This document shows positions 11,061 to 64,000 of a DNA stretch of 64,000 bases, piece after piece. The notes beneath the pieces were generated by a model. The model was not told where the DNA came from. It saw nothing but the letters and a program-made list of their open reading frames with translations, and made no database searches. This stretch comes from Bacteroidales bacterium. GTDB lineage: Bacteria > Bacteroidota > Bacteroidia > Bacteroidales > UBA3663. Position 1 is the first letter of the stretch, and each line of letters starts with the position of its first letter. Made by a program: the position numbers and the translations under genes. Location: NCBI GenBank assembly GCA_045576355.1, contig JAZNGG010000029.1, forward strand, positions 8,109-72,108, written 5' to 3'.

Positions 11061-11152
11061 CTCTTAATAGTGATTTGTGGGCTTCTGCCCGATTAGGGAT
11101 CATAGGGGGAACATTCAACCCCCTATGACCAATAGGATTTTCCGTGAAGGAA

Positions 11153-45079: not shown

Positions 45080-46120
45080 TTATTTGGTAACAGGACGGAT
45101 GAGATTTCCATACTCTCGACCCCAATAATTTGTTAATTTATAATTATCATCATCAATGTCTAGTGCATATGAAGAAACACTATCGTATTCAAGCAACGAA
45201 GCTGTCCAATAAGAAGCACTCCACCCACGAGAATGATAATTATCTTTTGTCCAAACCGTAGGCAAAAAAATACTTTTCCCATTGCGCCCGGTCACTTTGT
45301 AGCCGGTATAACCATTTCTCATGGTCCAGGTCCAGGTACACTTCGTTATTAATTCTTCCATTTCTGCTTGGGTGGGCATGCGCCAACTTGACCCCCACTT
45401 GACATAAGCTGCATCGTCTGCCGGGAGGAGAGTAGTCAAGCCATCGGTAAACCCTTCACATTGATAATGATAATAATGATCATAAAAATTTCGTTGACAT
45501 TTACCATAATTTTCGTCAGTACAATATTTGGTTACGACAATTCTGTCGCCACAGCAATAATCGTAAGTACCCCATTTATAATTATCCCAATTGTACTCAC
45601 TCTTAGTAGCAGTCTCACCCCAAGCAAAGAAATCGCCCTCCTTTTCTGGTGCAGTGGCGCCTACATTGCATGTTGCCCATTTCACAGAGAGACCAAGATC
45701 GACATAATCATGTCCCTGCACTGTCCCGGAGACATCCTGCACATTATTTACACCTTCACTTTTGGTAAATGTGTATGTATCGGCCGACTTCGTCATGATC
45801 ACAAAATAATTCTGCTCCATAGAAACAATGGTCCACAAAGAGGTGCCGCCTCCGGATTCGGACAAAGTCAACTGAGGATAGTTGAAAGAATAATAACCTT
45901 TTCCACCATCATACACACCGACATCCCAAGTGTAAGTGCCATCCGATTTGAAAAAGTAAGATCTTGTTCCGACACCCCAATTCCAATCTGTCGTCCAGAT
46001 TCCCACTAATGGATTGGATGGTTCGGAAGATCCGCCATCCCCATCATCACTACAAGCAGCAAAGTTCACACTCATCAAGATGGCAAATACTGCCATCGCA
46101 ATTGTTTTTAAAGTTTTCAT
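45080..46120 (-). CDS. Lipoprotein with lipocalin-like N-domain and DUF1566/FISUMP-like C-domain
   Basis: 346 aa, lipobox NFAAC. YVDLGLSVKWATCNVGA...FFAWGE and WRMPTQAEMEELI...YWTAS patterns. Confidence 0.6.
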   Translation of the reverse strand: MKTLKTIAMAVFAILMSVNFAACSDDGDGGSSEPSNPLVGIWTTDWNWGVGTRSYFFKSDGTYTWDVGVYDGGKGYYSFNYPQLTLSESGGGTSLWTIVSMEQNYFVIMTKSADTYTFTKSEGVNNVQDVSGTVQGHDYVDLGLSVKWATCNVGATAPEKEGDFFAWGETATKSEYNWDNYKWGTYDYCCGDRIVVTKYCTDENYGKCQRNFYDHYYHYQCEGFTDGLTTLLPADDAAYVKWGSSWRMPTQAEMEELITKCTWTWTMRNGYTGYKVTGRNGKSIFLPTVWTKDNYHSRGWSASYWTASLLEYDSVSSYALDIDDDNYKLTNYWGREYGNLIRPVTK

Positions 46121-48558: not shown

Positions 48559-48565
48559 TATATTT

Positions 48566-48880
48566 AGTTGAGGGGTTGAGAGGTTGAAGGGTTGAGGGGT
48601 TTAAAGGGCTGCGCCCGCAGGGCTTATGGAGCTTTGCTCTGCTATGGCTAATGGCGATGGCTACAAGGGTTCATGGCAGATGGCTTTGTTTTCACCTTAT
48701 AATGGGGCTGCGCCCCTAAACCCTTCAACTGAGATAACAGAGTACAGATAACAGAGCAAAGCCATCGCCATCAGCTATAGCGGACGAAGTCCATCAGCCA
48801 TCGCCATCGCCAAAAGCCATCGCCATCAGCCATAGTAGGGCGCAGCCCTTTAAACCTCTAAACCAACAAACCAAACTGTT
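48566..48880. repeat. Composite palindromic intergenic repeat (family copy R4)
   Basis: G-rich decamers (48567-48603). GGGCTGCGCCC...GCTATGGCTAATGGCGATGGC...AGATGGCTTTGTTTTCAC, then the complementary modules back to GGGCGCAGCCC. Confidence 0.85.
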
Positions 48881-48921
48881 AAAAAACCTTTTCCCCTCTT
48901 GACATCGGCTTTCGATTGTTG

Positions 48922-48929
48922 TATCTTTG
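48922..48929 (+). promoter_or_regulatory. -7 promoter box TATCTTTG at the 5' end of cassette copy B
   Basis: Exact TAnnTTTG match, conserved in copy A (complement 15438-15445). Confidence 0.4.
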
Positions 48930-48935
48930 TGACAC

Positions 48936-49033
48936 ATTTTGGTGATTACCCCTGTTTTGGGATAGTAAACGATGAAGCGTTGAGACGTTGTTGGGTTCAG
49001 ACCCTCCATGTTTCGATGCTTCATCGTTTTTTT
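48936..49033 (+). ncRNA. Candidate ~100-nt RNA inside cassette copy B
   Basis: 14-bp stem 48970-48983 / 49013-49026 followed by T7 (49027-49033). One stem position is U-A in copy A and U-G in copy B, which is tolerated only on this strand. Confidence 0.35.
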
Positions 49034-49150
49034 GTGTTCCTGCACTCGGCCGTTCGGATGAAAATTCGACGGCTCAAAAGGGTCCATTCATCGTGTTTTT
49101 TTGCTTAAAAGGCCGAGGCTTTTTACTTCACGCGCGTAGCCTCATTATTC

Positions 49151-49275
49151 AACGAGCGTACCCGCGTTGGTCGATGAGCGTACGCTCGTTGTGCAACGAG
49201 GCTACGCTCGTTAAAAATTCGCCCCGATGCGTTCCCCCATACAAGCCGATGCGAGAACAGATGAGAGCCGATGCG
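49151..49275 (+). repeat. 22-bp-periodic array (copy B): three AACGAG-N6-CTCGTT palindromes, then three GCC(C)GATGCG direct repeats
   Basis: Palindromes at 49151-49168, 49173-49190 and 49195-49212. Direct repeats at 49221, 49243 and 49265. Confidence 0.8.
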
Positions 49276-49460
49276 TGAAAATTATCTCACTTATCAATTT
49301 CTCCCTCGGTCTTTACTGTGATTTTTATGATTGAAACTTTGTCTTCTGATCCATTTTCCCCCTATCTTTAAAAGGTCTCCGATGAGTTTGGCTCAAAGCC
49401 GGAGTATATACCCCATAAAATGATATGCCGAAATAGCATTTAGGTGTTAATGTTTTATAA

Positions 49461-49800
49461 ATGGCAGGGTTGGTTTATGGGCTGCGCCTGCGATGGCTCA
49501 TGGCGATGGCAATGGCTTTGTTTTCACTTTTCACCTTTCAGTTTTCTCTTTGCTCTTTCCTCTTGTCAAGGCGAAGCTCACGTCCAAAGGGAATAATTCG
49601 CAGAATAACGCTCGCTATCGCTTGCGTTTCCCATCCGGATGGCAAAGCACTGCGGAGCATGTGCGCTCTGTGAAATTCTGTGCTTTTCTGTGTGCGAAAA
49701 ACTATGGCAGATGGCGATGGCTGATAGCTGTGCCTCTATAAGAGCAAAACTGAAAACAAAGCCATCTGCCATCGCCATCTGCCATCGCAGGACGAAGTCC
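49461..49800. repeat. Composite palindromic intergenic repeat (family copy R5)
   Basis: GGGCTGCGCCTGCGATGGCTCATGGCGATGGCAATGGCTTTGTTTTCAC ... GAAAACAAAGCCATCTGCCATCGCCATCTGCCATCGCAGG, with a ~150-bp unique centre. Confidence 0.85.
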
Positions 49801-49894
49801 CTAAAATTTTCCTCTTTATATTTTTCTAATTAGTAGAAAATTTGTTTCTTTGCAAAACAATCTGAAAAATCACAAATCTTATAAAATCACAAAC

Positions 49895-51670
49895 ATGAAA
49901 ACCTATCCTAAAATCGGTATCCGACCCGTCATTGATGCACGCCAAGGCGGTATCCGCGAAGGTCTCGAAGAGAAAACCATGTGTCTGGCTAAAGCCGTAG
50001 CAACATTGATTTCCGAAAACGTAAAAAACAGTGATGGAACACCCGTAGAGTGTGTCATTGCCGATGGCACTATCGGTCGTGTTGCCGAGACAGCAGCTTG
50101 TGCCGCTAAGTTTGAACGTGAGGGAGTCGGTGCTACCATCACCGTGACTTCTTGCTGGTGCTATGGTTCAGAAACCATGGACATGCACCCACATTGGCCA
50201 AAGGCTGTTTGGGGATTTAACGGTACAGAGCGCCCCGGTGCAGTCTATCTGGCAGCGGTCCTTGCAGCCCATGCACAAAAGGGTCTGCCGGCATTCGGCA
50301 TCTACGGACATGACGTACAAGACATGGGAGACAACTCTATCCCCGCCGATGTGGCAGAAAAAATACTCCGTTGGGCACGCGCAGCTCAAGCCGTAGCCAC
50401 CATGCGCGGACAGAGCTACCTCTCTATCGGCAGCCAATGTATGGGTATCGCAGGCAGTATCGTGGATCAGAACTTCTTCCAGGAATATCTCGGCATGCGC
50501 AATGAGAGCGTAGATGAAACAGAGATCCTGCGCCGCATGGAGGAAGGAATCTATGATCATGAGGAGTTTGCCAAAGCCATGGCATGGACAGAGAAATACT
50601 GCAAACCGAAAGAGGGATGGGATAAAAACCGCCCGGAGAAACAGAAAGATCGCGCCGGCAAGGACGCTGACTGGGAATTTGTCGTTAAGATGACCATCAT
50701 CATCCGCGACTTGATGTTGGGCAATCCCAAACTGCGCGAGATGGGCTTCAAAGAGGAGGCCATCGGACACAATGCCATCGCAGCCGGATTTCAGGGACAA
50801 CGTCAATGGACTGACTGGAAACCTAACGGAGACTTCTCTGAGGCACTCTTATGCAGCACCTTCGACTGGAATGGTATCCGTGAGGCTTATGTCCTCGCCA
50901 CCGAAAACGATGCTTGCAACGGCGTATCGATGCTCTTTGGCAAACTGCTGACCGGATGCGGACAGATGTTCTCTGACGTGCGCACATATTGGAGCCCGGA
51001 AGCCGTGAAACGTGTGACCGGTAAAGAACTCACCGGAATGGCTGCCGGAGGCATGATCCACCTCATCAACTCAGGAGCCACCACACTCGATGCCACCGGT
51101 GCGAGCACCAATGCTCAAGGTGAGCCTTGTATGAAGCCGGCATGGGAAATGACAGAGGCTGATGCTGAAGCCTGTCTGAAAGCGACCAACTGGCTGCCGG
51201 CTGACCGCGACTACTTCCGTGGAGGAGGATTCTCAAGCAACTTCCTCAGCAAGGGAGGAATGCCGGTGACGATGTGCCGTCTTAATCTGATCAAGGGGCT
51301 TGGTCCTGTTCTGCAGATCGCAGAGGGCTGGACAGCAGACGTCGAACCGGAAATCTTCGATGTCCTCAATATGCGCACAGACCCAACTTGGCCGACTACA
51401 TGGTTCGTGCCTCGTCTGGACGAAACCAAAGCCGCCTTTAAGGATGTCTATTCGGTGATGAATAATTGGGGAGCCAACCACGGCGCCATCAGCTACGGAC
51501 ACATCGGTGCAGACTTAATCACTTTGGCCTCTATGCTCCGCATCCCGGTATGTATGCACAATGTCCCGGAAGATCAGATTTTCCGCCCGGCAGCATGGAA
51601 TGCCTTTGGCATGGATAAGGAGGGTGCAGACTATCGTGCTTGCGCCACTTACGGCCCGGTGTATAAATAG
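49895..51670 (+). CDS. fucI: L-fucose isomerase
   Basis: ORF 49850-51670. Start chosen at [22 protein letters not shown] (ATG 49895), giving 591 aa, the canonical FucI length and N-terminus. Confidence 0.9.
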
Positions 51671-51875
51671 GGTGGTAGCCCCCCTGCGAGGGCATGGGGG
51701 CTACCGCCCTGCTATGGCTCATGGCAATGGCATGGTTGGTTGAGGGGTTGAAGGGTTGAGGGGTTGAAAAAATAAACTTCTAAACCAAATAAAGGGCTGC
51801 GCCCCTGCTATGGCTGATGGCAATGGCAGATGGCTTTGTTTTCAGTTTTCCTCTGTTCTCTATACTCTGTACTCA
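51671..51875. repeat. Composite intergenic repeat (family copy R6)
   Basis: 10-bp hairpin GGTAGCCCCC/GGGGGCTACC (51674-51705), GCCCTGCTATGGCTCATGGCAATGGC, G-rich decamers (51734-51766), and a second GGGCTGCGCCCCTGCTATGGCTGATGGCAATGGCAGATGGCTTTGTTTTCAG. Confidence 0.85.
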
Positions 51876-51891
51876 ACTAACGTATAAAAAA

Positions 51892-52281
51892 ATGAATCCA
51901 ACACCCCAACAAGGATATCCTGCCAGACAATATCCACACCCGGTAAAACGTTACTGCCAGACCCTCGATCTCCGAGACAATCCGGAACTGATTGCGGCCT
52001 ATCGTCGAGCACATAGTCCACAAGAGTTCTGGCCGGAAATCCTCTCCGGCATCCGTGAAGTCGGTATTTTAGAGATGGAGATCTACCTGCTCGGCACCCG
52101 TCTTTTCATGATCGTCGAGACCGCAGAAGATTTCGACTGGGAGACAGCCATGGCTCGTCTGGCAACACTGCCCCGACAAGCCGAATGGGAAGACTTTGTC
52201 GGACAGTTTCAGCAAGTACTCCAAGGAGCCAAGTCATCTGAGAAATGGAGACTGATGGAGCGCATTTTCAAACTTTACTGA
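51892..52281 (+). CDS. RhaM/YiiL-family sugar mutarotase (L-rhamnose/L-fucose mutarotase-like)
   Basis: ORF 51817-52281, whose first 25 codons read through the repeat. Start chosen at MNPTPQQ (ATG 51892). EFWPEILSGIREVGILEMEIYLLGTRLFMIVE pattern. Confidence 0.7.
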   Translation: MNPTPQQGYPARQYPHPVKRYCQTLDLRDNPELIAAYRRAHSPQEFWPEILSGIREVGILEMEIYLLGTRLFMIVETAEDFDWETAMARLATLPRQAEWEDFVGQFQQVLQGAKSSEKWRLMERIFKLY

Positions 52282-52344
52282 CCCTCTCATCGAGGAGTCT
52301 CATAACCAAAACAACAGCCGAGTAACACCTAAAACATAATCAAC

Positions 52345-53649
52345 ATGAACAACCAGAAACCAAAACTTGTAGAGAAAAAATATCTCATCCCCTTTATCCT
52401 CATCACATCATTATTTGCCTTATGGGGATTTGCCAATGACATCACCAATCCGATGGTGGCAGCATTCCAGACAGTAATGGAATTGTCAGCAGCTAAGGCT
52501 TCGTTGATCCAATTTGCATTCTACGGCGGATATGCCACCATGGCGATCCCTGCCGCCCTCTTCATTCGCAAATACAGCTACAAGAGCGGTATATTATTGG
52601 GACTCGGTCTGTATGCCTTCGGTGCATTCCTCTTTATCCCGGCAGCACATTTCCAGGAGTTCACTTTCTTCTGTTTTTCGCTCTATATCCTCACCTTTGG
52701 TCTGGCATTCCTCGAAACGACAGCCAATCCGTTTATCCTTTCATTAGGAGACAAGGCGACCTCAACACGACGCCTCAACATGGCACAAGCATTCAATCCT
52801 GTCGGCTCTCTGAGCGGTATGGCAGTGGCATCCTTTATCGTGCTGCCGCAACTATGGTCTGACAGACGCGATGCCAGCGGTCAAACTTTCTTCCACACCC
52901 TTTCAGATCTGGAAAAGGCAGAGATCAGACTTCATGACCTGGCAGTGATCCGCAATCCATATGTAGCACTCGGACTGATCGTAGTCATCACATTTATTAT
53001 TATCGCCATCACCAAGATGCCGAAGGTGAAAGAAGAAGAGAACACAGAAGAAGCCGAACACACAGTGTGGCAGACACTGCTGAATCTCTGGCGCAACCGC
53101 ATCTATCGCTACGGTGTGATGTCACAGGTATTCTATGTTGGTGCTCAAATCATGGTGTGGACATTCATCATCCAGTATGCCGACCGACTGGGCATCGACA
53201 AAGCTACTGCACAAGCCTATAACATCGTGGCAATGTCTCTCAACCTCGGAGGACGATTTATCGGAACTTACATCATGAAATTTGTTAACACCAGACGTCT
53301 CCTGATGTTATTCGGTATCGGGGCATCATTATGCACCTTGGGAGCCATCACACTGAATAGCATGGCAGGTCTCATCAGCCTTGTGCTCATCAGTCTGTTT
53401 ATGTCCATCATGTTCCCATCGATCTATGGCATAGCCCTCGAAAACGTCGATACACAAGACACCAAACTCGGAGCTGCATTCCTCGTAATGGCGATCGTGG
53501 GAGGAGCTCTCATGCCTCCGCTTCAAGGTATGATCATAGACTTGAAGACCATTGGCTCATTCCCTGCAGTCAATCTCTCTTTCTGTCTGCCGCTGATCTG
53601 CTTCCTGGTGATCGTCTGGTACGGACGTTATAGTCTGAAGAGAAGCTAA
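52345..53649 (+). CDS. fucP: L-fucose:H+ symporter permease (MFS)
   Basis: 434 aa, 12 TM segments, N-terminal FALWGFANDITNPMV FucP pattern. Confidence 0.85.
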   Translation: MNNQKPKLVEKKYLIPFILITSLFALWGFANDITNPMVAAFQTVMELSAAKASLIQFAFYGGYATMAIPAALFIRKYSYKSGILLGLGLYAFGAFLFIPAAHFQEFTFFCFSLYILTFGLAFLETTANPFILSLGDKATSTRRLNMAQAFNPVGSLSGMAVASFIVLPQLWSDRRDASGQTFFHTLSDLEKAEIRLHDLAVIRNPYVALGLIVVITFIIIAITKMPKVKEEENTEEAEHTVWQTLLNLWRNRIYRYGVMSQVFYVGAQIMVWTFIIQYADRLGIDKATAQAYNIVAMSLNLGGRFIGTYIMKFVNTRRLLMLFGIGASLCTLGAITLNSMAGLISLVLISLFMSIMFPSIYGIALENVDTQDTKLGAAFLVMAIVGGALMPPLQGMIIDLKTIGSFPAVNLSFCLPLICFLVIVWYGRYSLKRS

Positions 53650-53651
53650 AT

Positions 53652-53697
53652 AATCGTTTCGGGCAAAGTCTGTCATCCGTTTATATACGAAACGATT
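53652..53697 (+). other. 10-bp hairpin after fucP (weak terminator or processing site)
   Basis: AATCGTTTCG / CGAAACGATT with a 26-nt loop. No strong T-run. Confidence 0.35.
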
Positions 53698-53735
53698 GAG
53701 ATCTATATTTATCAAATAAACATTTAACTAAAACA

Positions 53736-55988
53736 ATGAAACAGACCAATTATCATCTGTTTGACTTTATGGATTTTGATCCGGAGCTCTCCCTCAACGA
53801 ATCTCTCTGGAAAGCGTGCCGACCAACACAAATCAGAGAACAAGATGGAGACATCTGGCTGGACATACCTTTTCAGAAACAGCAGTTGGCCAACGATATG
53901 GCTGCTGACGAAACAGCACCTCGGGTCACACACACACTGAGACTCCGTGCCTATAATCATCACATAGTCCGCCTATCGACCTCTTTTTCGGAGAAACACG
54001 ATGCCCATCCGGATGAAGATGATATGCTCTCATGGCACAAAGAGATCCATCAGATGCCCCTGTCTCTCCATGAAGAAAACGGTCTTTGGACCGTGACAGA
54101 TGATAAAGGCATAAAAAGGGCTGAAATCAATCTGAGGGAGGCTGTAATAGACTACTGGAGCGACCTCCAGCCTGCACCCCAGGAGACGATAGACATGACG
54201 CTCTTCCCCGATGGGAAAAAGAGTGTCCGTCTGAGTGCCTATGACCACTTTTCGCCCCCTCGTTACGATGCTCTCCCATTGGCTTACTGCCTCAAAGATG
54301 GGGAAAGCGAACGTGCCACACTCTCTTTCGAATGTCAGCCCGACGAATGTTTTGTCGGTACGGGTGAACGATTTACCAAAATGGACCTGAGCGGAAGGAC
54401 ATTCCAGCTTAAAAACCAGGATGGACAAGGGGTTAACAACCGTCGATGCTATAAGAACATCCCATTCTACCTGAGTAGCCGGATGTATGGTGTCTTCTAT
54501 CACACTTGTGCCCATTGTAAACTCTCTCTGGCAGATCACTCCACACGCTCAGTACAGTTTCTTAACGACCAGCCCACGATCGATGCATTTATCATCGGCG
54601 GTGAGACTCCCGAAGAGATCCTGCACGGCTATCGCTCCCTGACCGGTTTTCCTCCGATGCTCCCCCTCTGGAGTTTCGGCATCTGGATGAGCCGCATGAC
54701 CTACTTCAGCGCTGATGAAGTCAATGAGATCTGTCAGCGACTACGTGCAGAGAACTATCCCTGCGACGTGATCCATCTGGATACAGGATGGTTTAAGACC
54801 GACTGGTTATGTGAATGGAAATTTAACGAGGAACGATTCCCTAATCCCGTTAAGTTTATCCGTGATCTGAAAGAAAACGGATATCGTGTTTCCCTTTGGC
54901 AATTGCCCTATGTGGCAGAAGATGCCGAACAGATCACCGAGGCACGAGACAACAACTATATTGCCCCCCTTACCAAAAAACAAGAACGAGAAGGCTCCAA
55001 CTTCTCGGCATTAGATTACGCCGGAACTATCGACTTTACCTATCCTAAAGCGACAGAGTGGTACAAGCAATTGCTCCGCCGCCTGCTGGAAATGGGTGTC
55101 ACCTGCATCAAAACAGACTTTGGAGAAAACATTCACATGGATGCACTCTATCATGGCATGCCGGCAGCATTGCTCAACAATCTATATGCCCTGCTCTATC
55201 AGAAAGCCGCCTATGAGATTACCGAAGAGGTGTGCGGAGATGGCATTGTCTGGGCAAGAGCCGCGTGGGCAGGATGCCAACGCTACCCATTGCATTGGGG
55301 CGGCGACTCAGCCAGCACATGGGACGGAATGGCAGGTTCGCTGAAAGGAGGTTTGCACTTCGGTCTCTCCGGATTTGCTTTCTGGAGCCATGATGTGCCG
55401 GGATTCCACAGCCTGCCCAACTTTATGAACTCCCCCTTGCAGGAGGATGTCTATGTCCGCTGGACACAGTTTGGAGTCTTCACGTCTCATATGCGCTATC
55501 ATGGCAGCCACAAACGCGAACCATGGGCATATCCTGCCATAGCCCCGATCGTCAAGAAGTGGTGGCATCTGCGTTATCGACTTTTGCCTTACATCATCGA
55601 GCAAAGCCAAAAAGCCACCACCACCGGCTATCCTCTCGTTCGTGCCCTCATCTTCCATCATCATGATGACCGGATCTGCTGGCACATCGATGACCAGTAT
55701 TATTTCGGTGATGACCTCATGGTAGCTCCGGTAATGAACAGCGATAACTGCCGTGATGTCTATCTGCCGGAAGGCGAATGGGTGGACTTCTTCTCCGGCG
55801 AGACATTGCAGGGGGGCAGATGGTTGCGCCATCTGGAAGTTCCTTTGGACAAAATGCCTGTCTATGCTAAAAAAGGCAGTAACATTCCTATGTATAACGA
55901 ACCGGTGCAGTGCACCGATCAGATGGATCTCAGCAAAGCCGAACTCCTTTGCATCGATGAAACATTCGGAGGAATCTCCTTAGACTGA
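53736..55988 (+). CDS. GH31 glycoside hydrolase, YicI-like alpha-xylosidase type
   Basis: 750 aa with no signal peptide seen. Nucleophile block CIKTDFGENI (D at 55116-55118) and acid/base block LHWGGDS, as in YicI-type alpha-xylosidases. Confidence 0.8.
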   Translation: MKQTNYHLFDFMDFDPELSLNESLWKACRPTQIREQDGDIWLDIPFQKQQLANDMAADETAPRVTHTLRLRAYNHHIVRLSTSFSEKHDAHPDEDDMLSWHKEIHQMPLSLHEENGLWTVTDDKGIKRAEINLREAVIDYWSDLQPAPQETIDMTLFPDGKKSVRLSAYDHFSPPRYDALPLAYCLKDGESERATLSFECQPDECFVGTGERFTKMDLSGRTFQLKNQDGQGVNNRRCYKNIPFYLSSRMYGVFYHTCAHCKLSLADHSTRSVQFLNDQPTIDAFIIGGETPEEILHGYRSLTGFPPMLPLWSFGIWMSRMTYFSADEVNEICQRLRAENYPCDVIHLDTGWFKTDWLCEWKFNEERFPNPVKFIRDLKENGYRVSLWQLPYVAEDAEQITEARDNNYIAPLTKKQEREGSNFSALDYAGTIDFTYPKATEWYKQLLRRLLEMGVTCIKTDFGENIHMDALYHGMPAALLNNLYALLYQKAAYEITEEVCGDGIVWARAAWAGCQRYPLHWGGDSASTWDGMAGSLKGGLHFGLSGFAFWSHDVPGFHSLPNFMNSPLQEDVYVRWTQFGVFTSHMRYHGSHKREPWAYPAIAPIVKKWWHLRYRLLPYIIEQSQKATTTGYPLVRALIFHHHDDRICWHIDDQYYFGDDLMVAPVMNSDNCRDVYLPEGEWVDFFSGETLQGGRWLRHLEVPLDKMPVYAKKGSNIPMYNEPVQCTDQMDLSKAELLCIDETFGGISLD

Positions 55989-56000
55989 TAATATACATTT

Positions 56001-59000
56001 ATGAGTATGAAAACCTGGAAAGACAATCTTGAAGAGACCAAACAGAGATATACAGACTGGTGGAATCATAAAGGGATCGTTCTCAACATGTGGGAACACT
56101 TTCAAACCGGAGTTATCCCGCATGCCGACATCCCGGCACCGACCCCACCGAGGGATCTTAATCAGCGATGGTTTGACCCGAACTGGAGGGCTGAATATCT
56201 GGATTGGTATGTGGCACACAGCTCACTGAAAGCAGATATGCTGCCGGTGGCAAATACACAACTCGGTCCGGGCTCGCTGGCTGCGATCTTAGGAGGAAGA
56301 CTGGAGGGAGGTGAAGACACCATTTGGATTCATCCGGATCCGAATTATAATGACGATTTCAGTTTCGATCCGAATCACCCGAACTTCCTACTCCACAAGC
56401 AGCTCCTTAAAGCCTGCAAGCAAAAGGCTCAAGGGCACTATTATGTCGGTATGCCTGACTTAATGGAGGGATTGGACGTATTGGCTGCCATCAAGGGGAC
56501 CGACAAAGTGCTCTTGGACACGGTGATGCAGCCGGAAGTATTGGAGCAACAATTGCAACGCATCAACGATATCTATTTCCAGGTCTTTGACGAACTCTAT
56601 GAGATAATCCGAGAAGGAGATGAAATGGCATTCTGCTATTTCTCTTCATGGGCACCGGGCAAGATGAGCAAAATACAGTGCGATATCTCAACCATGCTCT
56701 CAGAGGATGATTATAGGCGTTTCGCACAACCATTCCTCCGGGAACAATGTCAGAAAATCGACTATACACTCTATCATCTGGATGGCGTCGGAGCCATGCG
56801 ACACCTGCCGGCATTGCTGGAAATCAAAGAACTGAATGCCATCCAGTGGACACCCGGCGTCGGCGAGCCACAAGGTGGTTCTCCCAAATGGTATCAACTC
56901 TACAGACAGATTCTCGATGCCGGAAAGAGCATTATGGCTTGCTGGGTAACTCTGGACGAGTTGAGACCTCTGTTGGACAACATCGGCGGAGATGGTGTCC
57001 ACTTAGAAATGGACTTCCATAACGAAGCAGAGGTGGAACAAGCCATGAAGATTGTCGAGGAATATCGCTCCTCGTCCAGTCGTCCTGCCACCGCTCTATC
57101 TCAACAGTCCTCCCCCATTGTCCTTTCCTCCGAACCTCGCACCACATCATCACACGCTATAGAGCATCCCACCAGCGCTTCCGAACCTCTCTACCCGATA
57201 GAGGAGATTGCTCGGAAACGAATATTGGTTTTGGATGGGGCCATGGGGACCATGATTCAGACATACAATCTCTCTGAAGAGGATTTCCGAGGAGAAAGAT
57301 TTGCCCGACATACGCACCCGCTTAAAGGGAACAATGACCTCCTTTCGCTGACCCGTCCGAAGATCATCGAAGAAATACACCGCAGATATCTCTCTGCCGG
57401 TGCAGACATCATTGAGACCAACACTTTCAGCGCACAAAGGATCTCAATGGCAGATTACGGACTCTCCGAATCTTGTCGAGAAATCAATCTTGCAGCATGT
57501 CAGATCGCAAGAAAAGTGGCCGATGAGTTTACTCAAATGACTCCGGACAAGCCTCGTTTTGTAGCAGGATCGGTCGGTCCGACCACCAAATGTTGCTCTC
57601 TCTGTTCGGACATACATCATGTCGAAAGACGTCCTCTCGATTTTGACACCATCGCCGCTGCCTATCGTGAGCAAATAGAGGCACTCATCGAGGGAGGAGT
57701 AGATACACTCTTGATAGAGACCATCTTTGACACGCTCAATGCCAAAGCAGCCATCTATGCAGCACAAGAAGCAATGCAGCACTGCAAACGGAAACTCCCC
57801 ATCATGCTCAGTCTCACATTGGCTGATTCGACCGGACATAATCTCGCAGGGCAAGATATCGATGCTTTCTTGGCTTCGGTGGCGCATGCTCCGATCTTCT
57901 CTATCGGTCTCAACTGCTCTTTCGGGGCAGAACAGATGAAACCATTCCTCCGCCAGATCGCACAAAAAGCCCCCTACTACATCAGCGCATACCCCAATGC
58001 CGGTCTGCCCGATGAGCACGGAAATTATGATCAGACTCCGGAAGAGATGCAGCAACAGGTGTGGCCGCTCATCGAAGAGCATCTGATCAACATCATAGGG
58101 GGTTGTTGCGGGACAACAGATCGGCACATCGCTCTCTACGAGTCTCTCGTGCATCCGGCTCCACAGATCTATGTTTCCCCACATCGTCCTGTATCTAAAG
58201 CGGCTTATGTCACACTCTCTGCCGGTAAAGCGCTCGACTGGAAACCCTCAGAGACTCTTATCGTCGGTGGTAGCATCGATGCTTCTCAACACTCCACTCT
58301 GATCGAACAGATCAAAAAACGTCAGTGGGGAGAGATTACCGAAACCGCTACGACACAAATCGAAAACGGAGCATCACTGATCCTTATCCAACCGGATACA
58401 GAGACTGCGCCTTGCGATGCTCAGTCAGCCGAAGAGGTGGTCAGAGCGCTCACAGCCGATGCCACCATAGCTGCGACTCCGCTCTTCCTCTCATCCTCTT
58501 CGGAAGAAGCACGAACCATATTTGCCAAAAATCTGCAAGGGCGCAGTATCATCGGACCATTAACCTTTAAGAGGGGTGAGGATCATTTTCTCGCAGAGGC
58601 ACATCGACTGCACCGACTTGGCGCTCTGGTGGTCTTCCGTCCGGAAACAGACGAAGACCCAAATCCGAAAACCGAACGGCGCATCGACCTATGTCTCCGA
58701 GCATATCTGCTTCTGACATTGGAAGTGGGCTATCAGCCTTCAGAAATCATCATAGATCCGATCACACCTCAATTCTCACGGAGACACTCCATCGCTCCAT
58801 TCATAGAGACCGTAGAATGGTTGCGACACAACTGGCCAAGCATACATCTGCTTTGTAATCTCGATGCACTGATAGAGCATCTCAATGTCCATGCTGCCAT
58901 CGCAACAAGTCTGCAAAGCGAATTTTGCCAAATGGCTAAAAATGCAGGATGTGATCTGATTATCACCGCTCACCCCGAGATGTTAGGTCTGCAAGAGACA

Positions 59001-59750
59001 CTCCGGCAAGGGGCAGAAGGAGATCATCATGCCCTGGATCGGCTCGAGAAAATCAGTAAAAACGCTTCACTTGCCAACAGCTCGTCCAGTCATCAGACAC
59101 AAACTGAAAAAACAGAATCGTCTGACGAAGTCTTCTCTGCTATCTTGGAGGGTAAAGCCGAAAAAGCCGTGGAGGCAACACGCCAAGCCATCGAACAAGG
59201 AGAGACTCCGCAGCAGATTATCAACCGCCAGATGATACGTGCCATGGGAGAAGTAGGAAGCCGATTTGAAAGCGGAAAAGCTTTTGTGCCCCAACTGCTG
59301 ATGGCAGGAAGAGCTATGAAAGCTGCATTAGACCTGCTTAAGCCCCTCATGAGCGGCGAAGCCTCAGCATCGGCGGGCAAGGTGGTCATAGGTACCGTCA
59401 AGGGAGACCTGCACGACATCGGCAAGAATCTCGTTGCATCGATGTTAGAGGGTTGTGGATTTGAAGTGATCAACATCGGTATAGATGTCTCCGCAGAGAC
59501 CTTTGTCGAGGCTGTACGCGAACACAAACCCGACATCCTCTGTCTCAGCGCCCTGCTGACCACAACGATGACCTATATGCCAACAGTGATCCAGGCTCTC
59601 AGCGATGCAGGACTCCGTGACTCAATAAAAATCATGGTAGGTGGAGCTCCTGTCAGTCAAGAATTTGCGGACCAGATCGGAGCCGACGGCTATAGTGACA
59701 ATGCCAATGCAGCCGCTCATCTCGCTCAGAAACTAATGAAAGAACAATAG
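56001..59750 (+). CDS. Fusion protein: URO-D-like methyltransferase domain + MetH-type homocysteine S-methyltransferase domain + degenerate pterin-binding-like barrel + B12-cap/B12-binding domain
   Basis: 1249-aa uninterrupted ORF. Zn-ligand Cys in LNCSFG (57915-57917) and GGCCGT (58104-58109). DxHxxG in GDLHDIGKN (59406-59423). See findings for the domain parsing. Confidence 0.75.
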   Translation: MSMKTWKDNLEETKQRYTDWWNHKGIVLNMWEHFQTGVIPHADIPAPTPPRDLNQRWFDPNWRAEYLDWYVAHSSLKADMLPVANTQLGPGSLAAILGGRLEGGEDTIWIHPDPNYNDDFSFDPNHPNFLLHKQLLKACKQKAQGHYYVGMPDLMEGLDVLAAIKGTDKVLLDTVMQPEVLEQQLQRINDIYFQVFDELYEIIREGDEMAFCYFSSWAPGKMSKIQCDISTMLSEDDYRRFAQPFLREQCQKIDYTLYHLDGVGAMRHLPALLEIKELNAIQWTPGVGEPQGGSPKWYQLYRQILDAGKSIMACWVTLDELRPLLDNIGGDGVHLEMDFHNEAEVEQAMKIVEEYRSSSSRPATALSQQSSPIVLSSEPRTTSSHAIEHPTSASEPLYPIEEIARKRILVLDGAMGTMIQTYNLSEEDFRGERFARHTHPLKGNNDLLSLTRPKIIEEIHRRYLSAGADIIETNTFSAQRISMADYGLSESCREINLAACQIARKVADEFTQMTPDKPRFVAGSVGPTTKCCSLCSDIHHVERRPLDFDTIAAAYREQIEALIEGGVDTLLIETIFDTLNAKAAIYAAQEAMQHCKRKLPIMLSLTLADSTGHNLAGQDIDAFLASVAHAPIFSIGLNCSFGAEQMKPFLRQIAQKAPYYISAYPNAGLPDEHGNYDQTPEEMQQQVWPLIEEHLINIIGGCCGTTDRHIALYESLVHPAPQIYVSPHRPVSKAAYVTLSAGKALDWKPSETLIVGGSIDASQHSTLIEQIKKRQWGEITETATTQIENGASLILIQPDTETAPCDAQSAEEVVRALTADATIAATPLFLSSSSEEARTIFAKNLQGRSIIGPLTFKRGEDHFLAEAHRLHRLGALVVFRPETDEDPNPKTERRIDLCLRAYLLLTLEVGYQPSEIIIDPITPQFSRRHSIAPFIETVEWLRHNWPSIHLLCNLDALIEHLNVHAAIATSLQSEFCQMAKNAGCDLIITAHPEMLGLQETLRQGAEGDHHALDRLEKISKNASLANSSSSHQTQTEKTESSDEVFSAILEGKAEKAVEATRQAIEQGETPQQIINRQMIRAMGEVGSRFESGKAFVPQLLMAGRAMKAALDLLKPLMSGEASASAGKVVIGTVKGDLHDIGKNLVASMLEGCGFEVINIGIDVSAETFVEAVREHKPDILCLSALLTTTMTYMPTVIQALSDAGLRDSIKIMVGGAPVSQEFADQIGADGYSDNANAAAHLAQKLMKEQ

Positions 59751-59812
59751 AAACTGAGAACCGAGAGAGGTGTATATCTCCTCTCTCGGTCTCTCCCTTA
59801 ATAAAAACCATT

Positions 59813-61408
59813 ATGATCAACACACATTTCTTTAAAGTAGAGGATTGGGTTATTTTATCCACTTACTTTATCCTTCTTCTTTTAATCGGTATTTATGCCA
59901 GCCGCAAGGCAAGCCAAGGTAGTGCCAGTTTTATGGCAGGCAACTCTCTGCGATGGTACCATATCGGCTTCTCTATGTGGGGCACCAATGTCGGTCCGTC
60001 CATGCTTATAGCCTCAGCGAGTGCAGGCTTCACCACTGGCATAGTTTCGGGCAACTATGCCTGGTATGCTTTCATCTTCATCGCGCTGCTTGCCTTCGTC
60101 TTTGCTCCTCGCTATTTAGGTGAAAAAGTGATGACACTCCCGGAGTTTATGGGTAAACGTTTTAGCAGTTCCACTCGAGGTGTTTTGGCATGGTACACCA
60201 TCGTCACTGTACTCATCTCATGGCTGGCACTTACACTCTTTGCCGGAGGTGTTCTCATTCGTCAGATCTTTGACATTCCGATGTGGCTCTCTGCCACCAT
60301 CCTACTCCTCATCTCCGCCTTTTTCACCATTCTCGGAGGACTGAAAGCCATCGCCTATACCAATGTATATCAGATGTTGCTCCTCATCATTGTCTCCCTC
60401 GCCCTTACTGTCTTTGGCATCTTTAAGTTGGGAGATGGTTCTTTCTTCGGAGGTATTCAAGTGCTGGGTGATCCTCAAATCATCCCGGACAACTACTGGC
60501 GTCTCTTCCAGCCCAATGAAGACCCGGCATTCCCATGGCTCCCGATCCTTTTGGGATATCCGATCTCCGGCATCTGGTTCTGGTGTACAGATCAATCCAT
60601 GGTGCAGCCTGTCCTTGCGGCTCGCAGTCTCAAAGAGGGACAACGGGGTGCCAACTTCACCGGATGGCTCAAAATCCTCGATGTACCGCTTTACATTCTT
60701 CCCGGCATACTCTGTTTTGCACTCTGTAAAACCGGCATCTTTACTTCGACTCCTGCTCCGGACAATGCCTATATGACGATGGTCTCCAATCTTTTCCCCT
60801 CCGGCATGGTGGGTCTTGTCATGGCGATTCTTACCGCAGCTTTGGTGAGCACTATTGGGTCTGCTCTCAATGCGCTCAACACGGTTTTCACCATGGACAT
60901 ATATGTTAAAAATATCCGTCCGCAAGCTACCTCACGCGAAATTACCAATATGGGACGTCTGGTCACCGTTACCGGCTCCATCCTCAGCATCCTTATTTGT
61001 GTCTGCATTGATAACATCCGAGGGCTGGATCTCTTCAATATCTTCCAGTCCGTCCTCAGCTTCATTGCTCCTCCGATGGCTGCAGTCTTTGTGATGGGTG
61101 TTTTCTGGCGTAAGTGTACTACGATGGCTGCCAATCTTACCCTTACTGTGGGGACACTTATCTCCATCGGTATCGGAGTGCTCTATCTTTGGGCATGGCC
61201 CATCGCTTCGTGGAAACCCCACTTCATGATGCTCTCTTTCTATATCTTTGTCTTATTGGTTGTCGGGATGGTTATCATCAGTCTTTGTGGGAAAAAAGAG
61301 ACGCACGAACCCATCAAGATACTCCGCAGCCCTATCTCTTTAGAGACCAAAATAGGTTGGGGATTGCTGTTTGCTGTCATGATAGGTTTATATGTGTGGT
61401 TTAATTAA
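59813..61408 (+). CDS. Sodium:solute symporter (SSS/SGLT family)
   Basis: 531 aa, ~13-14 TM segments, SSS-type N-terminus (...FMAGNSLRWYHIGFSMWGTNVGPSMLI...). Confidence 0.8.
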   Translation: MINTHFFKVEDWVILSTYFILLLLIGIYASRKASQGSASFMAGNSLRWYHIGFSMWGTNVGPSMLIASASAGFTTGIVSGNYAWYAFIFIALLAFVFAPRYLGEKVMTLPEFMGKRFSSSTRGVLAWYTIVTVLISWLALTLFAGGVLIRQIFDIPMWLSATILLLISAFFTILGGLKAIAYTNVYQMLLLIIVSLALTVFGIFKLGDGSFFGGIQVLGDPQIIPDNYWRLFQPNEDPAFPWLPILLGYPISGIWFWCTDQSMVQPVLAARSLKEGQRGANFTGWLKILDVPLYILPGILCFALCKTGIFTSTPAPDNAYMTMVSNLFPSGMVGLVMAILTAALVSTIGSALNALNTVFTMDIYVKNIRPQATSREITNMGRLVTVTGSILSILICVCIDNIRGLDLFNIFQSVLSFIAPPMAAVFVMGVFWRKCTTMAANLTLTVGTLISIGIGVLYLWAWPIASWKPHFMMLSFYIFVLLVVGMVIISLCGKKETHEPIKILRSPISLETKIGWGLLFAVMIGLYVWFN

Positions 61409-61745: not shown

Positions 61746-64000
61746 TTAGAAATCGAGTTTCAGGCCGGCGAAGAAAGAGCGGGGCATATCGGGCCCATAC
61801 ATATAACCGGCATCGCGTAACTCCCCTTTATCGAAGTCTTCTTGATAAGCATTAAAGATATTCTGCACTCCGGCATTGAGTTGGAGCACTGTACCTCCTC
61901 TTAAGTCGAAATCATAACTGAGTTTGAAGTTCAGGTCAAAAAATTCGGGAGTCTCCACAGCAATGTCCTCAGGTACATATCCGGCTACGTGTTGCATCAG
62001 CATGCTTCCCGTATAAGTTCCTGACAAGGCAGCTGTCAAAGGCTTGACAGGATTATAACTCAATGTGAAATAACCATAAGCCTCCGGTGTACGGGCAATG
62101 CGTTTTTCTGCTTTGGCTGTCTCACTCCATTGTTCCGCTTTCTTGTATTCGCTCTTTTGGAGTGTGGCTCCTGCCTGCAATTGCAGCATATTACGATAAG
62201 CCAATTTACCCTCCAAAGTCACACCATAAACATCAGCTCCCGAAGCATTGTGACGCTCCAGTGTGAGGATTCCATCCTCATGACTTTTCTCTCTCAAAGC
62301 AAACACATCATTGAGAGTCGTATAGAATCCCTCAATCAAGAAATTGCCCTGAAAGTCTCCCCAACGATGATATAAGTCGGCAGAGAGGCTGAAACTGTGC
62401 GACTTCTCCTCCTGCAGATCATCAGCCAATTCGATCATCGATACACCTCCACCGACAGCCTCGATGTGAAGATCCTCGTCAAAGGCCTGTGGCGCACGGA
62501 ATCCGGCAGAATAGCTGACACGGAAGTTGATGTTTTCCGAAGGGTTGAAACGAAGGTTGGCTCGCGGACTGAAGATAAGGCCATCGATCAGATTATGTTT
62601 GTCAAAGCGACCACCGATGAGGAAACTCCAACGATCATTCTTCCACTCATTTTGCAAAAAGAGACTTCCGATATGCACAGTCTGCTTCAACTCTCGACCA
62701 TAACCCCACATATTATCCTCAAGGGCATCGCGATTATACTCCATACCTCCTGTGAAAGCCGCCGGCATAAAGAGACATCGTTCGAAGTTATAGACATACT
62801 GACCGCCCACTACTGTGGTGAGATCTGTGGTGGCACCATAAGCATACGGATCACGTCCGGCTCCGTAATAACTCTTACGGTCGATGTGCTGCGCTGAGGC
62901 ATAAAGACTCACCCGATGCTTCTCGTTGGGACTAAAATAATCAAACTTCAGGCCTCCTCCATTGATACTATGCTCGGTCTGTTCACAGATATTCGCCTGA
63001 TGAGGGGGCAGATCCAGAGAGTCTCCTCCACGACGAAACTCCTCGATGTGGTGATATTCAAAAGAGAGTTTGCTATAAAGACCGGTCTTGATATAAGAGC
63101 GAAATCCAATGGTCTGCTGATGCAACTTACACAACTCACTATATCCATCTCCATTGGCATCATATTCTTCGCGCTGACGATTTTGACCGAAAATGAAAAG
63201 TCCCGCCTTCCGATTATCTGTCACTAAGGAAGCATTGAGTGTAGAACTATGATCTATGGCTCCATCGATCGACATCGTTGTGTGAGCCAATTGTCCACTA
63301 TTACGCAATGGCTCCTTTGTAATAATATTGATCGTTCCGGCAATGGCAGACGAACCAAACAATGCCGAACCCCCTCCACGCATTACCTCTACTCGATCCA
63401 CCATATTGGCAGGGATTTGCTCCAGTCCATACACTCCGGAGAGAGCACTGAAGATCGGTCGGGAGTCAATAAGAATCTGTGTATAGGGACCATCGAGTCC
63501 ATTGATGCGTACCTGCTGGAAACCACAGTTCTGGCAATTATTTTCGACACGCACACCGGGCTGATAGTTCAATCCCTCTGCCAAAGTAGGTGATGTAGTT
63601 GTCTCAAACAGACGGGAATCAACAACATTGATAAGAGTAGGAGCCAAACGACGGGAAGTCTCATTACGATTGGCAGAAACTACGACAGCATCCAGGGCTA
63701 TCAAGTCTTCAGAGATAGTAAAGTTCTCTTCCAGTGTCTTACCCTTTTTGGTTACCACTTCACGTTCGATGGTCTCATATCCCAATGTGGAAACCACCAT
63801 CGTGTATGTACCCTCCGGCAGATTCTTCAAGAAATAGTGTCCACTCTCATCCGTAGTAGTTCCGATAGTAGTCCCTTTCAGGACAACATTGACAAAAGGG
63901 ACATGCTCACCATTATCGGCATCAATCACATGTCCGACAATATTCGCATCACTGCGATTCACTTTCACATGGCTGTGTCCATGATGATCTGAATGACTCT
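61746..64000 (-). CDS. TonB-dependent receptor with CarboxypepD_reg-like N-domain; 5' end lies beyond the window
   Basis: Frame stays open to position 64000 (…SHSDHHGHSH-VKVNRSD…). The listed start at 63968 is only a GTG. Plug and 22-strand-barrel-like body with terminal ...FAGLKLDF. Confidence 0.8.
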   Translation of the reverse strand, partial: SHSDHHGHSHVKVNRSDANIVGHVIDADNGEHVPFVNVVLKGTTIGTTTDESGHYFLKNLPEGTYTMVVSTLGYETIEREVVTKKGKTLEENFTISEDLIALDAVVVSANRNETSRRLAPTLINVVDSRLFETTTSPTLAEGLNYQPGVRVENNCQNCGFQQVRINGLDGPYTQILIDSRPIFSALSGVYGLEQIPANMVDRVEVMRGGGSALFGSSAIAGTINIITKEPLRNSGQLAHTTMSIDGAIDHSSTLNASLVTDNRKAGLFIFGQNRQREEYDANGDGYSELCKLHQQTIGFRSYIKTGLYSKLSFEYHHIEEFRRGGDSLDLPPHQANICEQTEHSINGGGLKFDYFSPNEKHRVSLYASAQHIDRKSYYGAGRDPYAYGATTDLTTVVGGQYVYNFERCLFMPAAFTGGMEYNRDALEDNMWGYGRELKQTVHIGSLFLQNEWKNDRWSFLIGGRFDKHNLIDGLIFSPRANLRFNPSENINFRVSYSAGFRAPQAFDEDLHIEAVGGGVSMIELADDLQEEKSHSFSLSADLYHRWGDFQGNFLIEGFYTTLNDVFALREKSHEDGILTLERHNASGADVYGVTLEGKLAYRNMLQLQAGATLQKSEYKKAEQWSETAKAEKRIARTPEAYGYFTLSYNPVKPLTAALSGTYTGSMLMQHVAGYVPEDIAVETPEFFDLNFKLSYDFDLRGGTVLQLNAGVQNIFNAYQEDFDKGELRDAGYMYGPDMPRSFFAGLKLDF

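Follow-up and report, generated by a model that had tools for sequence, protein, structure and literature searches.

A predicted cobalamin-dependent route for salvage of rhamnogalacturonan-II methyl-ether sugars, encoded beside fucose genes in a Bacteroidales genome

The window analyzed here is a stretch of 64,000 nucleotides (nt) from a Bacteroidales bacterium (contig JAZNGG010000029.1). It carries a run of genes on the same (+) strand: fucI, a RhaM-type mutarotase gene, fucP, a glycoside hydrolase family 31 (GH31) gene, a gene for a corrinoid fusion protein of 1249 amino acids (aa) and a sodium:solute symporter (SSS) gene. The balance of the evidence tips slightly towards a predicted role of this locus in the salvage of methyl-ether sugars of rhamnogalacturonan-II (RG-II) via a cytoplasmic cobalamin-dependent O-demethylase with homocysteine as the methyl acceptor. 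The methyl sugars concerned are proposed to be 2-O-methyl-D-xylose, 2-O-methyl-L-fucose, or both. A more tentative proposal, rated somewhat below even, is that the N-terminal domain of the fusion (N-domain) represents a new cobalamin-dependent family, which would cleave aliphatic sugar methyl ethers without oxygen, close the one gap in the published model of RG-II breakdown together with GH141, GH31 and the SSS importer, and deliver the methyl group to methionine. A methylated-sugar pathway had already been suggested in a sequence-only reading of this DNA, and as a prediction it is the best available explanation of the locus, with substantial backing from comparative genomics.

The proposed route starts outside the cytoplasm, where a GH141 lipoprotein encoded upstream of fucI would, by homology to BT1002, cleave RG-II chain A at its fucosyl linkage and free the disaccharide 2-O-methyl-D-xylose-alpha1,3-L-fucose (2-O-Me-Xyl-alpha1,3-Fuc, MeXyl-Fuc). 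The SSS transporter could then import the methylated sugar or disaccharide fragment into the cytoplasm. The N-domain is proposed to be the substrate:corrinoid methyltransferase (MT-I), which would bind the methylated sugar and transfer the methyl-ether group to cob(I)alamin on the C-terminal corrinoid domain; its modelled fold, its fusion partners and a fusion with a MeTr module all point in this direction. Transfer from methyl-cob(III)alamin to homocysteine, giving methionine, could be performed by a homocysteine S-methyltransferase (Hcy) domain, proposed as the methyl acceptor module (MT-II), whose intact Zn site accompanies a dead folate site. The cytoplasmic GH31 would split the alpha-xyloside before or after demethylation. 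Demethylation as the first step is attractive, because a retaining alpha-xylosidase would plausibly be impeded by the 2-O-methyl group. Fucose would be taken by FucI, and free fucose could be imported by FucP. In most relatives, the second methyltransferase may be an MtaA-like Zn enzyme, and S-adenosylmethionine (SAM)-dependent re-activation could be provided by a MetH activation domain encoded on its own. Free 2-O-methyl-fucose released by GH139 is a possible second or main substrate; most loci encode two proteins of URO-D fold, namely the N-domain and the MtaA-like enzyme.

The fusion was compared over 81 loci, which are the window and its 80 best related loci. Genomes of at least 350 species encode the N-domain fused to corrinoid domains. 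Architecture A, the N-domain with a corrinoid domain (~600 aa), is found in 16 of the 81 loci and is represented in Bacteroides and Phocaeicola. Architecture B, with a Hcy domain between the two (~930–1050 aa), accounts for 64 loci and is represented in Prevotella and Duncaniella. Architecture C is the 1249-aa form of the window with an extra folate-like relic, which is unique among the 81 loci; the exact protein is on no record and a second example of its architecture was not found. Fusions of intermediate length (714–715 aa) occur in L053 and L078, where the N-domain is followed by ~110 extra residues and the B12 domain, so that they lie between the 600- and 950-aa forms. Two fusion loci (L012 and L057) belong to one metagenome-assembled genome, RGIG8873, and are thus paralogous copies.

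The strongest argument for the N-domain as an MT-I module is its repeated fusion to a corrinoid carrier together with a methyl acceptor. In a neighbor-joining tree, the Hcy domain of the window groups with canonical MetH, and the Hcy domains of architecture B form their own clade. The window domain shares 66–69% identity with canonical Bacteroidales MetH fragments and 50–61% with its counterpart in the ~950-aa fusions. Taken together, the grouping and these identities indicate that the homocysteine module was recruited at least twice. A third fusion comes from an unrelated lineage: protein P0176 (L087, positions 886–3813; 975 aa) combines, in this order, a MeTr module (methyl-tetrahydrofolate:corrinoid methyltransferase), which exceeds its cut-off of 259 with 345 bits, a B12 domain with its cap, and a homologue of the N-domain. 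It is encoded downstream of a DUF2284 gene and upstream of AraC and GH31 genes. Three separate fusions, two with Hcy and one with MeTr, thus argue for a methyltransferase function of the N-domain.

These fusions also bear on an alternative role, in which the N-domain would be a URO-D-fold enzyme modifying or binding sugars, and the corrinoid domain would be a B12 sensor or regulator, or only the carrier of the MtaA-like enzyme. Such a role is improbable. It could account for the stand-alone relatives that lack corrinoid genes and lie in sugar-metabolism contexts (L085, L089), as well as for the absence from the N-domain of a Zn motif and of sequence similarity to characterized methyltransferases. 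It does not sit well with three independent corrinoid-and-acceptor architectures, with a MetH-type re-activation domain encoded in 38 of 51 loci, or with MtaA being the closest structure.

Sequence searches with residues 1–360 gave no Pfam match even at E ≤ 10 and no useful PDB match, and a profile of 56 N-domain members likewise gave nothing useful against Pfam or PDB. The N-domain was placed by structure comparison alone. The AlphaFold2 model, built from the alignment of relatives, has a predicted local distance difference test (pLDDT) value of 95.5 and a predicted template modelling score (pTM) of 0.93. Its top Foldseek matches are Methanosarcina mazei MtaA (4ay7/4ay8; E 1e-8, template modelling score ~0.6–0.66), followed by uroporphyrinogen decarboxylases (UROD) and MetE. 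The sequence-only reading had assumed a methyltransferase of URO-D type; the fold bears this out, and sequence comparison with Pfam and PDB does not. Weak PF01208 matches (best 5e-6) appear in 22 of the 56 sampled relatives. In total, 1976 relatives were found among 1.84 billion representatives, and most of them are stand-alone proteins of ~360 aa with 28–42% identity to the query.

Residues W21, W109, D228, F241, H259, D261 and G262 are invariant in the N-domain family, and further Trp, Asp and Lys residues are nearly so. The family has no invariant Cys, which means that the MtaA zinc site is absent. By motif context, and not by structural alignment, Y-H259-L-D261-G stands where MtaA has H-x-C-G, and W-T-P-G-V-G stands at the position of the MtaA motif P-G-C-G. 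The abundance of conserved Trp would fit a sugar-binding pocket. By analogy with MtaB and MeTr, D228, H259 or D261 could speculatively act as a general acid. Among the best 80 loci, the N-domain is 82–88% identical across Prevotellaceae, Bacteroidaceae and Muribaculaceae. The neighboring proteins of loci L003–L082 are far less similar to those of the window (GH141 40–65%, GH31 58–77%, SSS 64–72%, Hcy 41–61%). Within the cluster, constraint is highest on the N-domain; wholesale recent transfer therefore does not explain the pattern.

The acceptor side of the protein adds a point that was absent from the sequence-only reading, namely a homocysteine domain coupled to a dead folate domain. The Hcy domain aligns with the Hcy domain of human MTR along its length and keeps the Zn cysteines C639 (GLNCSFG) and C702/C703 (GGCCGT). 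The folate-like region that follows scores 19.3 bits with PF00809 (residues 770–941), below the cut-off of 25.5. Relative to human methionine synthase, its motifs are changed from GERCN to GGSID, DVNMD to LIQPD, IDSS to LSSS, VNSIS to IGPLT and GLSNLSFSFRG to CNLDALIEHLN. No homologue of residues 731–1030 was found at E ≤ 1e-3 among 5.8 billion proteins, and the region is present in none of the 80 related loci. It is probably a non-catalytic relic. Constraint thus differs sharply within one protein, since the folate-like part has no detectable homologue and the adjoining Hcy domain retains the identity to MetH given above.

The corrinoid part consists of a B12 cap (residues 1043–1114) and a B12-binding domain (residues 1126–1238), in which the DxHxxG motif is DLHDIG (residue 1136). 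Its best NCBIfam models are cognate corrinoid proteins of the MtgC/MtbC type, all under their equivalog cut-offs, and it shares 67–77% identity with the B12 domain in every related fusion. The MetH activation domain (PF02965) is absent, as the protein stops after the B12 domain.

It is highly improbable that the fusion is a variant housekeeping MetH acting on methyl-tetrahydrofolate, with the N-domain replacing the activation domain and the neighbors coincidental. The metH model TIGR02082 does give 711 bits over residues 405–1248, and the Hcy domain is close to canonical MetH. However, this score lies under the cut-off of 1010.85, as does that of NF007024 (664 bits, cut-off 1497). A folate domain is missing from most relatives, and in 16 of the 81 loci the Hcy domain is missing too. 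Bacteroides thetaiotaomicron has a separate MetH, BT_0180 (PMC8941943). The genes are syntenic with glycoside hydrolases and never with methionine or folate genes. The sub-cut-off score, the dead folate site and the synteny effectively exclude the MetH reading. For the fusion as a salvage enzyme, it is proposed that the stretch comprising Hcy and folate-like regions came as one piece, in a separate event, from a canonical MetH and that the folate half then decayed. In evolutionary terms, the 1249-aa form would be a curiosity: a donor module at the N-terminus would have taken over in a MetH chassis, leaving the folate barrel to decay.

Neighbors were counted in the 51 of 81 loci that extend at least 7 kb to either side. 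GH31 is present in 43 of these 51 loci, and in 43 an SSS gene follows immediately after the fusion or after GH31. GH141 is found in 41, a 336-aa MtaA-like gene in 38 and a stand-alone MetH activation domain (Met_synt_B12, ~230 aa) also in 38. The zinc triad H-x-C...C is conserved in the MtaA-like protein, whose best sequence match is MtaA (TIGR01463 family; 141 bits against a family cut-off of 235). In at least 6 loci, the stop codon of GH31 adjoins the start of the N-domain or overlaps with it. A RamA-type ATP-dependent activase was not seen.

The linkage also holds where the N-domain is not fused to a corrinoid domain. In L089 (58% identity), a stand-alone N-domain is arranged as GH31, N-domain, SSS and a GH141+GH78 fusion, and in L088 (36% identity) as URO-D, N-domain and SSF. 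The comparative check proposed in the sequence-only reading thus turned out in its favor, with the N-domain accompanied by GH31, SSS, GH141 and often fuc genes. The setting which that reading had named as contrary, a position next to methionine or folate genes, was found in none of the 81 loci. The cluster is shared by gut and rumen Bacteroidales and is a real, deeply conserved B12-dependent module, linked to glycosidases of RG-II type and to fucose catabolism.

The same neighborhood bears on a possible capture of methanol from methyl-esterified pectin, with the N-domain in the part of MtaB, the corrinoid domain in that of MtaC and the neighbor in that of MtaA, and with the methyl group passing to methionine. 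This function is less probable still than a sugar-binding role of the N-domain. The corrinoid domain scores against MtaC models, the neighboring gene scores against MtaA models, and pectin would be a fitting substrate setting. The genes linked most tightly, however, are SSS, GH31 and GH141, none of which is needed for methanol, and GH31 is translationally coupled to the N-domain. The N-domain has no MtaB/MtaA-type Zn ligands, and its many invariant Trp resemble those of sugar-binding sites. No CE8 gene is linked.

Fucose genes recur around the cluster. In the window, the isomerase and the permease of the canonical fucR-I-A-K-P operon are equivalogs above their cut-offs, and all three Pfam fucose-isomerase domains were found in FucI. 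Among the 81 loci, 13 have fucI at a distance of no more than 10 kb from the fusion, and the fucP–rhaM–fucI trio borders the cluster in Duncaniella-type loci. Altogether, fucI, fucP, mutarotase or oxidative fucose-type genes are present in 22 of 81 loci. This number includes other loci with fucI, or with genes of aldo-keto reductase, amidohydrolase_2, Zn-dehydrogenase or DHDPS type.

A variant without GH141, GH31 and SSS occurs in L025 and L081. It comprises a GH139-like gene, the fusion, the activation domain and the MtaA-like gene, followed by a DHDPS-family aldolase, a second SSF transporter and fucI. This variant looks tailored to free 2-O-methyl-fucose.

The GH141 of the window is predicted to be an alpha-L-fucosidase of the BT_0338/BT1002 type. 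It gives a full-length alignment with the BT1002 structure 5MQP (527 bits). Both catalytic Asp are kept, in YDAGG and YLDEA; they align with 5MQP chain residues 528/569, and their spacing of 41 equals that of D523/D564 (PMC10154630). The N-terminus MKNRICLSVLLALFGLSSC is a lipoprotein signal. The protein is 57–62% identical to Bacteroides-type cluster copies (BT_0338 type), and it is closer to this uncharacterized type than to BT1002 as judged from the alignment. BT1002 frees 2-O-methyl-D-xylose-alpha1,3-L-fucose from RG-II chain A, and the other characterized GH141 is a xylanase (PMC10154630).

GH31 carries the Pfam domains PF13802, PF01055 and PF21365. The KTDFGE and HWGGD blocks (nucleophile and acid/base motifs) and the absence of a signal peptide, both noted earlier, were read again in the sequence, which starts with MKQTNYHLFDF...; the fusion likewise has no signal peptide. 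The best NCBIfam model is that of YicI alpha-xylosidase (NF007940), with 480 bits under a cut-off of 606. Against PDB entry 5f7c, the window protein scores 1323 bits, compared with 352 bits against YicI, and the GH31 of the Bacteroides sp. GM023 cluster is near-identical to 5f7c (1680 bits). The window enzyme is the orthologue of the Bacteroides cluster gene that this structure represents. The entry was deposited under the name 'alpha-glucosidase'; to our knowledge, no activity is known for it.

The links to RG-II come mainly from Prevotella. In 9–12 Prevotella loci, the fusion gene lies directly 3' of a gene for a GH139–GH78 rhamnosidase fusion. In nine of these, genes for SASA (a sialate-esterase-type carbohydrate esterase) and for a protein matching the structure of the RG-II rhamnosidase BT0986 (5MQM; 1244 bits) lie further upstream. 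The first 700 residues of the GH139–GH78 protein match 9HYQ/9HMB with 748 bits, and these are GH139 2-O-methyl-L-fucosidases (PMC12282258). With GH139 and GH141 present in these loci, enzymes freeing both methyl-ether units of RG-II flank the corrinoid gene. In PULDB, the final genes of a Flavobacterium RG-II polysaccharide utilization locus (PUL) are 'GH78, unk, unk, unk, GH31_3', with 'GH141, GH28, PL10_1' adjacent. The Prevotella GH139+GH78 fusion has 1450 aa in L056 (5640–9992) and also occurs in L015, L016, L018, L023, L024, L036, L037 and L054. Another lineage has a GH141+GH78-like fusion of at least 2050 aa (L089, 3323–9472).

The cluster is also carried by B. thetaiotaomicron (BT_0338–0343), and the Phocaeicola vulgatus cluster is locus L039. 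In B. thetaiotaomicron, BT_0338 is a GH141 (PMC8264420) and BT_0339 is annotated as an alpha-xylosidase (PMC10434189). BT_0340, BT_0342 and BT_0343 are given as 'Mta' corrinoid methyltransferase proteins with no stated role, and 'Mta' is one of the five known B12-binding proteins or complexes of this species (PMC8941943). The corrinoid genes are thus already known by annotation, without an assigned function. B. thetaiotaomicron is reported to degrade all RG-II linkages but one (PMC12282258).

Unlikely, but to be weighed here, is the use of the same machinery for another methylated carbohydrate, such as 4-O-methyl-glucuronic acid of xylan or arabinogalactan, 3-O-methyl sugars or methyl-inositols (e.g., pinitol). 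The role of GH141 and GH31 would be to trim the corresponding oligosaccharide, and the acceptor would be homocysteine or a thiol. The existence of a xylanase in GH141, the resemblance of the window GH141 to the BT_0338 type rather than to BT1002, the GH31 score under the YicI equivalog cut-off, and the presence of the cluster in B. thetaiotaomicron, which does not clear MeXyl-Fuc, are all in line with it. RG-II is favored instead by the adjacency of GH139 in 11–12 loci and of the 5MQM-like enzyme in nine, by the GH141–GH78 and GH139–GH78 fusions, by the recurrent fucose genes and by GH31_3 with GH141 at the Flavobacterium RG-II PUL. Genes for a xylanase, GH67 or GH115 were seen in none of the loci.

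Several observations weigh against salvage of RG-II methyl ethers. Cleavage of alkyl methyl ethers is chemically harder than that of the aryl ethers split by known O-demethylases. The RG-II linkage that survives in the B. thetaiotaomicron model is reportedly the MeXyl-Fuc bond. This species has the cluster yet is reported to leave one linkage uncut, and the specific substrate is therefore not secure. The earlier pathway is partly supported, by synteny, the N-domain fold, GH141/BT1002, GH139 and the MeTr fusion. The fusion of B. thetaiotaomicron is of architecture A and has no Hcy domain. The linkage might stay uncut through lack of induction or through the missing Hcy module, and it could equally do so because the substrate is a different one.

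Further contrary points concern the proteins and the window itself. The 'Mta' proteins were not among the four that bound a B12 probe (PMC8941943). The Zn motif of MtaA is missing from the N-domain, which has HxD in place of HxC; this correspondence rests on motif context, because hhalign of the N-domain family against the MtaA-like proteins of the cluster is not significant (E 0.1). Stand-alone N-domain relatives in L083 and L085 have no corrinoid gene nearby. The N-domain tree mixes GH139-linked, GH31-linked and fucI-linked copies, and a tree that is not split by context gives no hint of distinct substrate specificities. The window contains neither an MtaA-like gene nor a stand-alone Met_synt_B12 gene. 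As the sequence-only reading had noted, the fucose pathway is also incomplete in the window: no Aldolase_II or FGGY kinase (fucA/fucK) was found among the open reading frames scanned against Pfam, which were most of those of at least 150 aa and one of 135 aa.

Demethylation of a sugar methyl ether within a polysaccharide utilization pathway has a precedent in marine Bacteroidetes, where 6-O-methyl-D-galactose is demethylated by a cytochrome P450. That enzyme is an oxygen-dependent monooxygenase and releases formaldehyde. The present system, in contrast, would perform an oxygen-independent methyl transfer in which the methyl group is conserved.

The Odm/Mtv O-demethylases of Acetobacterium, Desulfitobacterium and Moorella (PMC3727330) consist of a substrate-specific TIM-barrel MT-I, a corrinoid protein with cap and Rossmann domains, and an MT-II for unloading of the methyl group. 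The proposed system would follow this logic, and both settings are anaerobic and cytoplasmic. They differ in that Odm/Mtv use aryl methyl ethers, tetrahydrofolate as the acceptor and an ATP-dependent activase. Here, the substrate is presumably an aliphatic sugar ether, the acceptor would be a MetH Hcy domain, and relatives have re-activation of the MetH SAM type; the MT-I candidate has no Pfam model, and the modules are joined in one chain. CmuA, the chloromethane methyltransferase, also joins a methyltransferase of URO-D fold to a corrinoid-binding domain, and the structure that the N-domain matches best is that of MtaA from the MtaA/MtbA family (TIGR01463). Unlike CmuA, MtaA and MtbA, with which it has no detectable sequence similarity, the N-domain has no H-x-C...C zinc site.

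MetH shares with the fusion the Hcy domain with Zn cysteines and the order Hcy, folate-like, cap and B12, and the end product of the fusion is probably methionine, as for MetH. The fusion is distinguished by its degenerate folate site, the lack of an activation domain, the extra N-domain and a corrinoid domain nearer to the MtbC/MtgC type. In MtgBCD of Ruegeria pomeroyi (PMC12478193), glycine betaine demethylation and methionine synthesis share one corrinoid module; the substrate, however, is a quaternary amine, the MT-I belongs to the MttB superfamily, the proteins are separate, and the host is an aerobic marine proteobacterium. In the RG-II degradome of B. thetaiotaomicron, the homologous BT1002 (GH141) and BT0984 (GH139) free both methyl-ether units (PMC10154630, PMC12282258). 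The published model ends at the freed methylated products, and BT_0338–0343 lie outside it.

No paper proposing a corrinoid-dependent sugar O-demethylase was found by text searches of the literature. If the proposal is true, the activity, anaerobic B12-dependent O-demethylation of a sugar methyl ether, would be named for the first time. The cluster would supply candidate genes for the sole RG-II linkage and products left unexplained by the B. thetaiotaomicron model, as well as a function for the long-listed Bacteroides 'Mta' B12 proteins BT_0340–0343. One of the five B12-dependent systems of B. thetaiotaomicron (PMC8941943) would gain a role, and with it an additional reason for competition for B12. 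Fiber intake would be linked to the bacterial methionine supply in dominant gut and rumen Bacteroidales. The methionine-synthase chassis would have been re-used, with its folate module caught decaying in this genome.

The layout of the locus is given in Table 1. The co-directional run from fucI to SSS agrees with the earlier description in coordinates and gene families, and in the gaps of 12–86 nt from fucP onward. The intergenic gaps along the run are 146, 63, 86, 12 and 62 nt. Together with the stop/start overlap in relatives, they suggest that the run is co-transcribed. GH141 is counted in the same gene set as a core member. The 'beta-helix protein' that the sequence-only reading had listed as pectin context is present on the + strand, and it is in fact this GH141 lipoprotein.

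Table 1. Features of the window, with coordinates in nt and residues in aa.
Feature	Position	Strand	Basis
GH141 lipoprotein	46693..48558	+	Pfam GH141_M 5e-63, Beta_helix
Non-coding spacer, repeat-dense	48559..49849	.	No open reading frame with a family match
fucI, L-fucose isomerase	49895..51670	+	TIGR01089 1116 bits (cut-off 850); open reading frame 49850-51670, ATG 49895
RhaM-family mutarotase (fucose/rhamnose mutarotase type)	51817..52281	+	PF05336 4e-29
fucP, L-fucose:H+ symporter of the major facilitator superfamily (MFS)	52345..53649	+	TIGR00885 546 bits (cut-off 280)
Cytoplasmic GH31, YicI-like predicted alpha-xylosidase	53736..55988	+	Three GH31 Pfam domains
Corrinoid fusion, single unbroken open reading frame, 1249 aa	56001..59750	+	Pfam/NCBIfam domains
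N-domain of fusion	56001..57080, aa 1-360	+	AlphaFold2/Foldseek: URO-D/MtaA-like TIM barrel
Ser/Pro/Thr-rich linker	57081..57212, aa 361-404	+	Read from sequence; pLDDT falls at the C-terminal end of the N-domain model
MetH-type homocysteine S-methyltransferase domain	57213..58145, aa 405-715	+	PF02574 6e-96, residues 409-711
Degenerate folate (pterin)-binding-like domain	58191..59090, ~aa 731-1030	+	Pterin_bind sub-threshold
B12 cap and Rossmann-type cobalamin-binding domain	59127..59714, aa 1043-1238	+	PF02607 3e-21, PF02310 2e-29
SSS, sodium:solute symporter	59813..61408	+	PF00474 2.8e-52; TIGR00813 259 bits (cut-off 184)
TonB-dependent receptor	61746..63968	-	SusC model 74 bits (cut-off 368)
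Minor-fimbria locus	8835..14410	-	Mfa-like fimbrillin genes, DUF5119 and DUF3575 proteins
SGNH esterase	15720..16559	-	
PL10 pectate lyase-GH43 fusion	16562..19669	-	
GHL10 protein	21076..22686	-	
Protein of 541 aa	36593..38218	-	No Pfam match
Protein of 346 aa, lipoprotein-like N-terminus	45080..46120	-	No Pfam match

The 1.3-kb spacer between GH141 and fucI contains 7 direct-repeat families and 27 inverted pairs. The repeats are of the GCCATCGCCATC(A/T)GCCAT type, in direct and inverted orientation, and are accompanied by a tandem run of the 8-nt unit GTTGAGGG. The promoter or regulatory sequences for the run from fucI to SSS presumably lie in this spacer; its repeats may represent a repeat element or a regulatory region. 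A sigma-70 promoter and terminator scan of the window gave counts at shuffle level, the scan model being unsuited to Bacteroidetes. An Rfam scan of the window gave zero matches, and so no cobalamin riboswitch.

A SusC/SusD pair is absent by the cluster: there is no SusD, and the sole outer-membrane receptor is far below the SusC model cut-off. This TonB-dependent receptor gene is convergent with the SSS gene, starts at the window edge and is not kept in related loci. It has a weak likeness to haem, siderophore and B12 receptors and is not of SusC type.

The polysaccharide lyase family 10 (PL10) pectate lyase–GH43 fusion, the SGNH esterase and the GHL10 protein form a separate glycan group. The PL10/GH43 and SGNH genes lie ~27 kb from the cluster, with dxs, trkAH, ftsK and trxB housekeeping genes between. 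The sequence-only reading had cited both as nearby pectin context, which was rejected as evidence for the cluster because ~25 kb of housekeeping genes intervene. Two proteins of 541 and 346 aa, encoded on the - strand, are without a Pfam match. Near the other end of the window, the Mfa-like fimbrillin genes, together with those of the DUF5119 and DUF3575 proteins, constitute a minor-fimbria locus.

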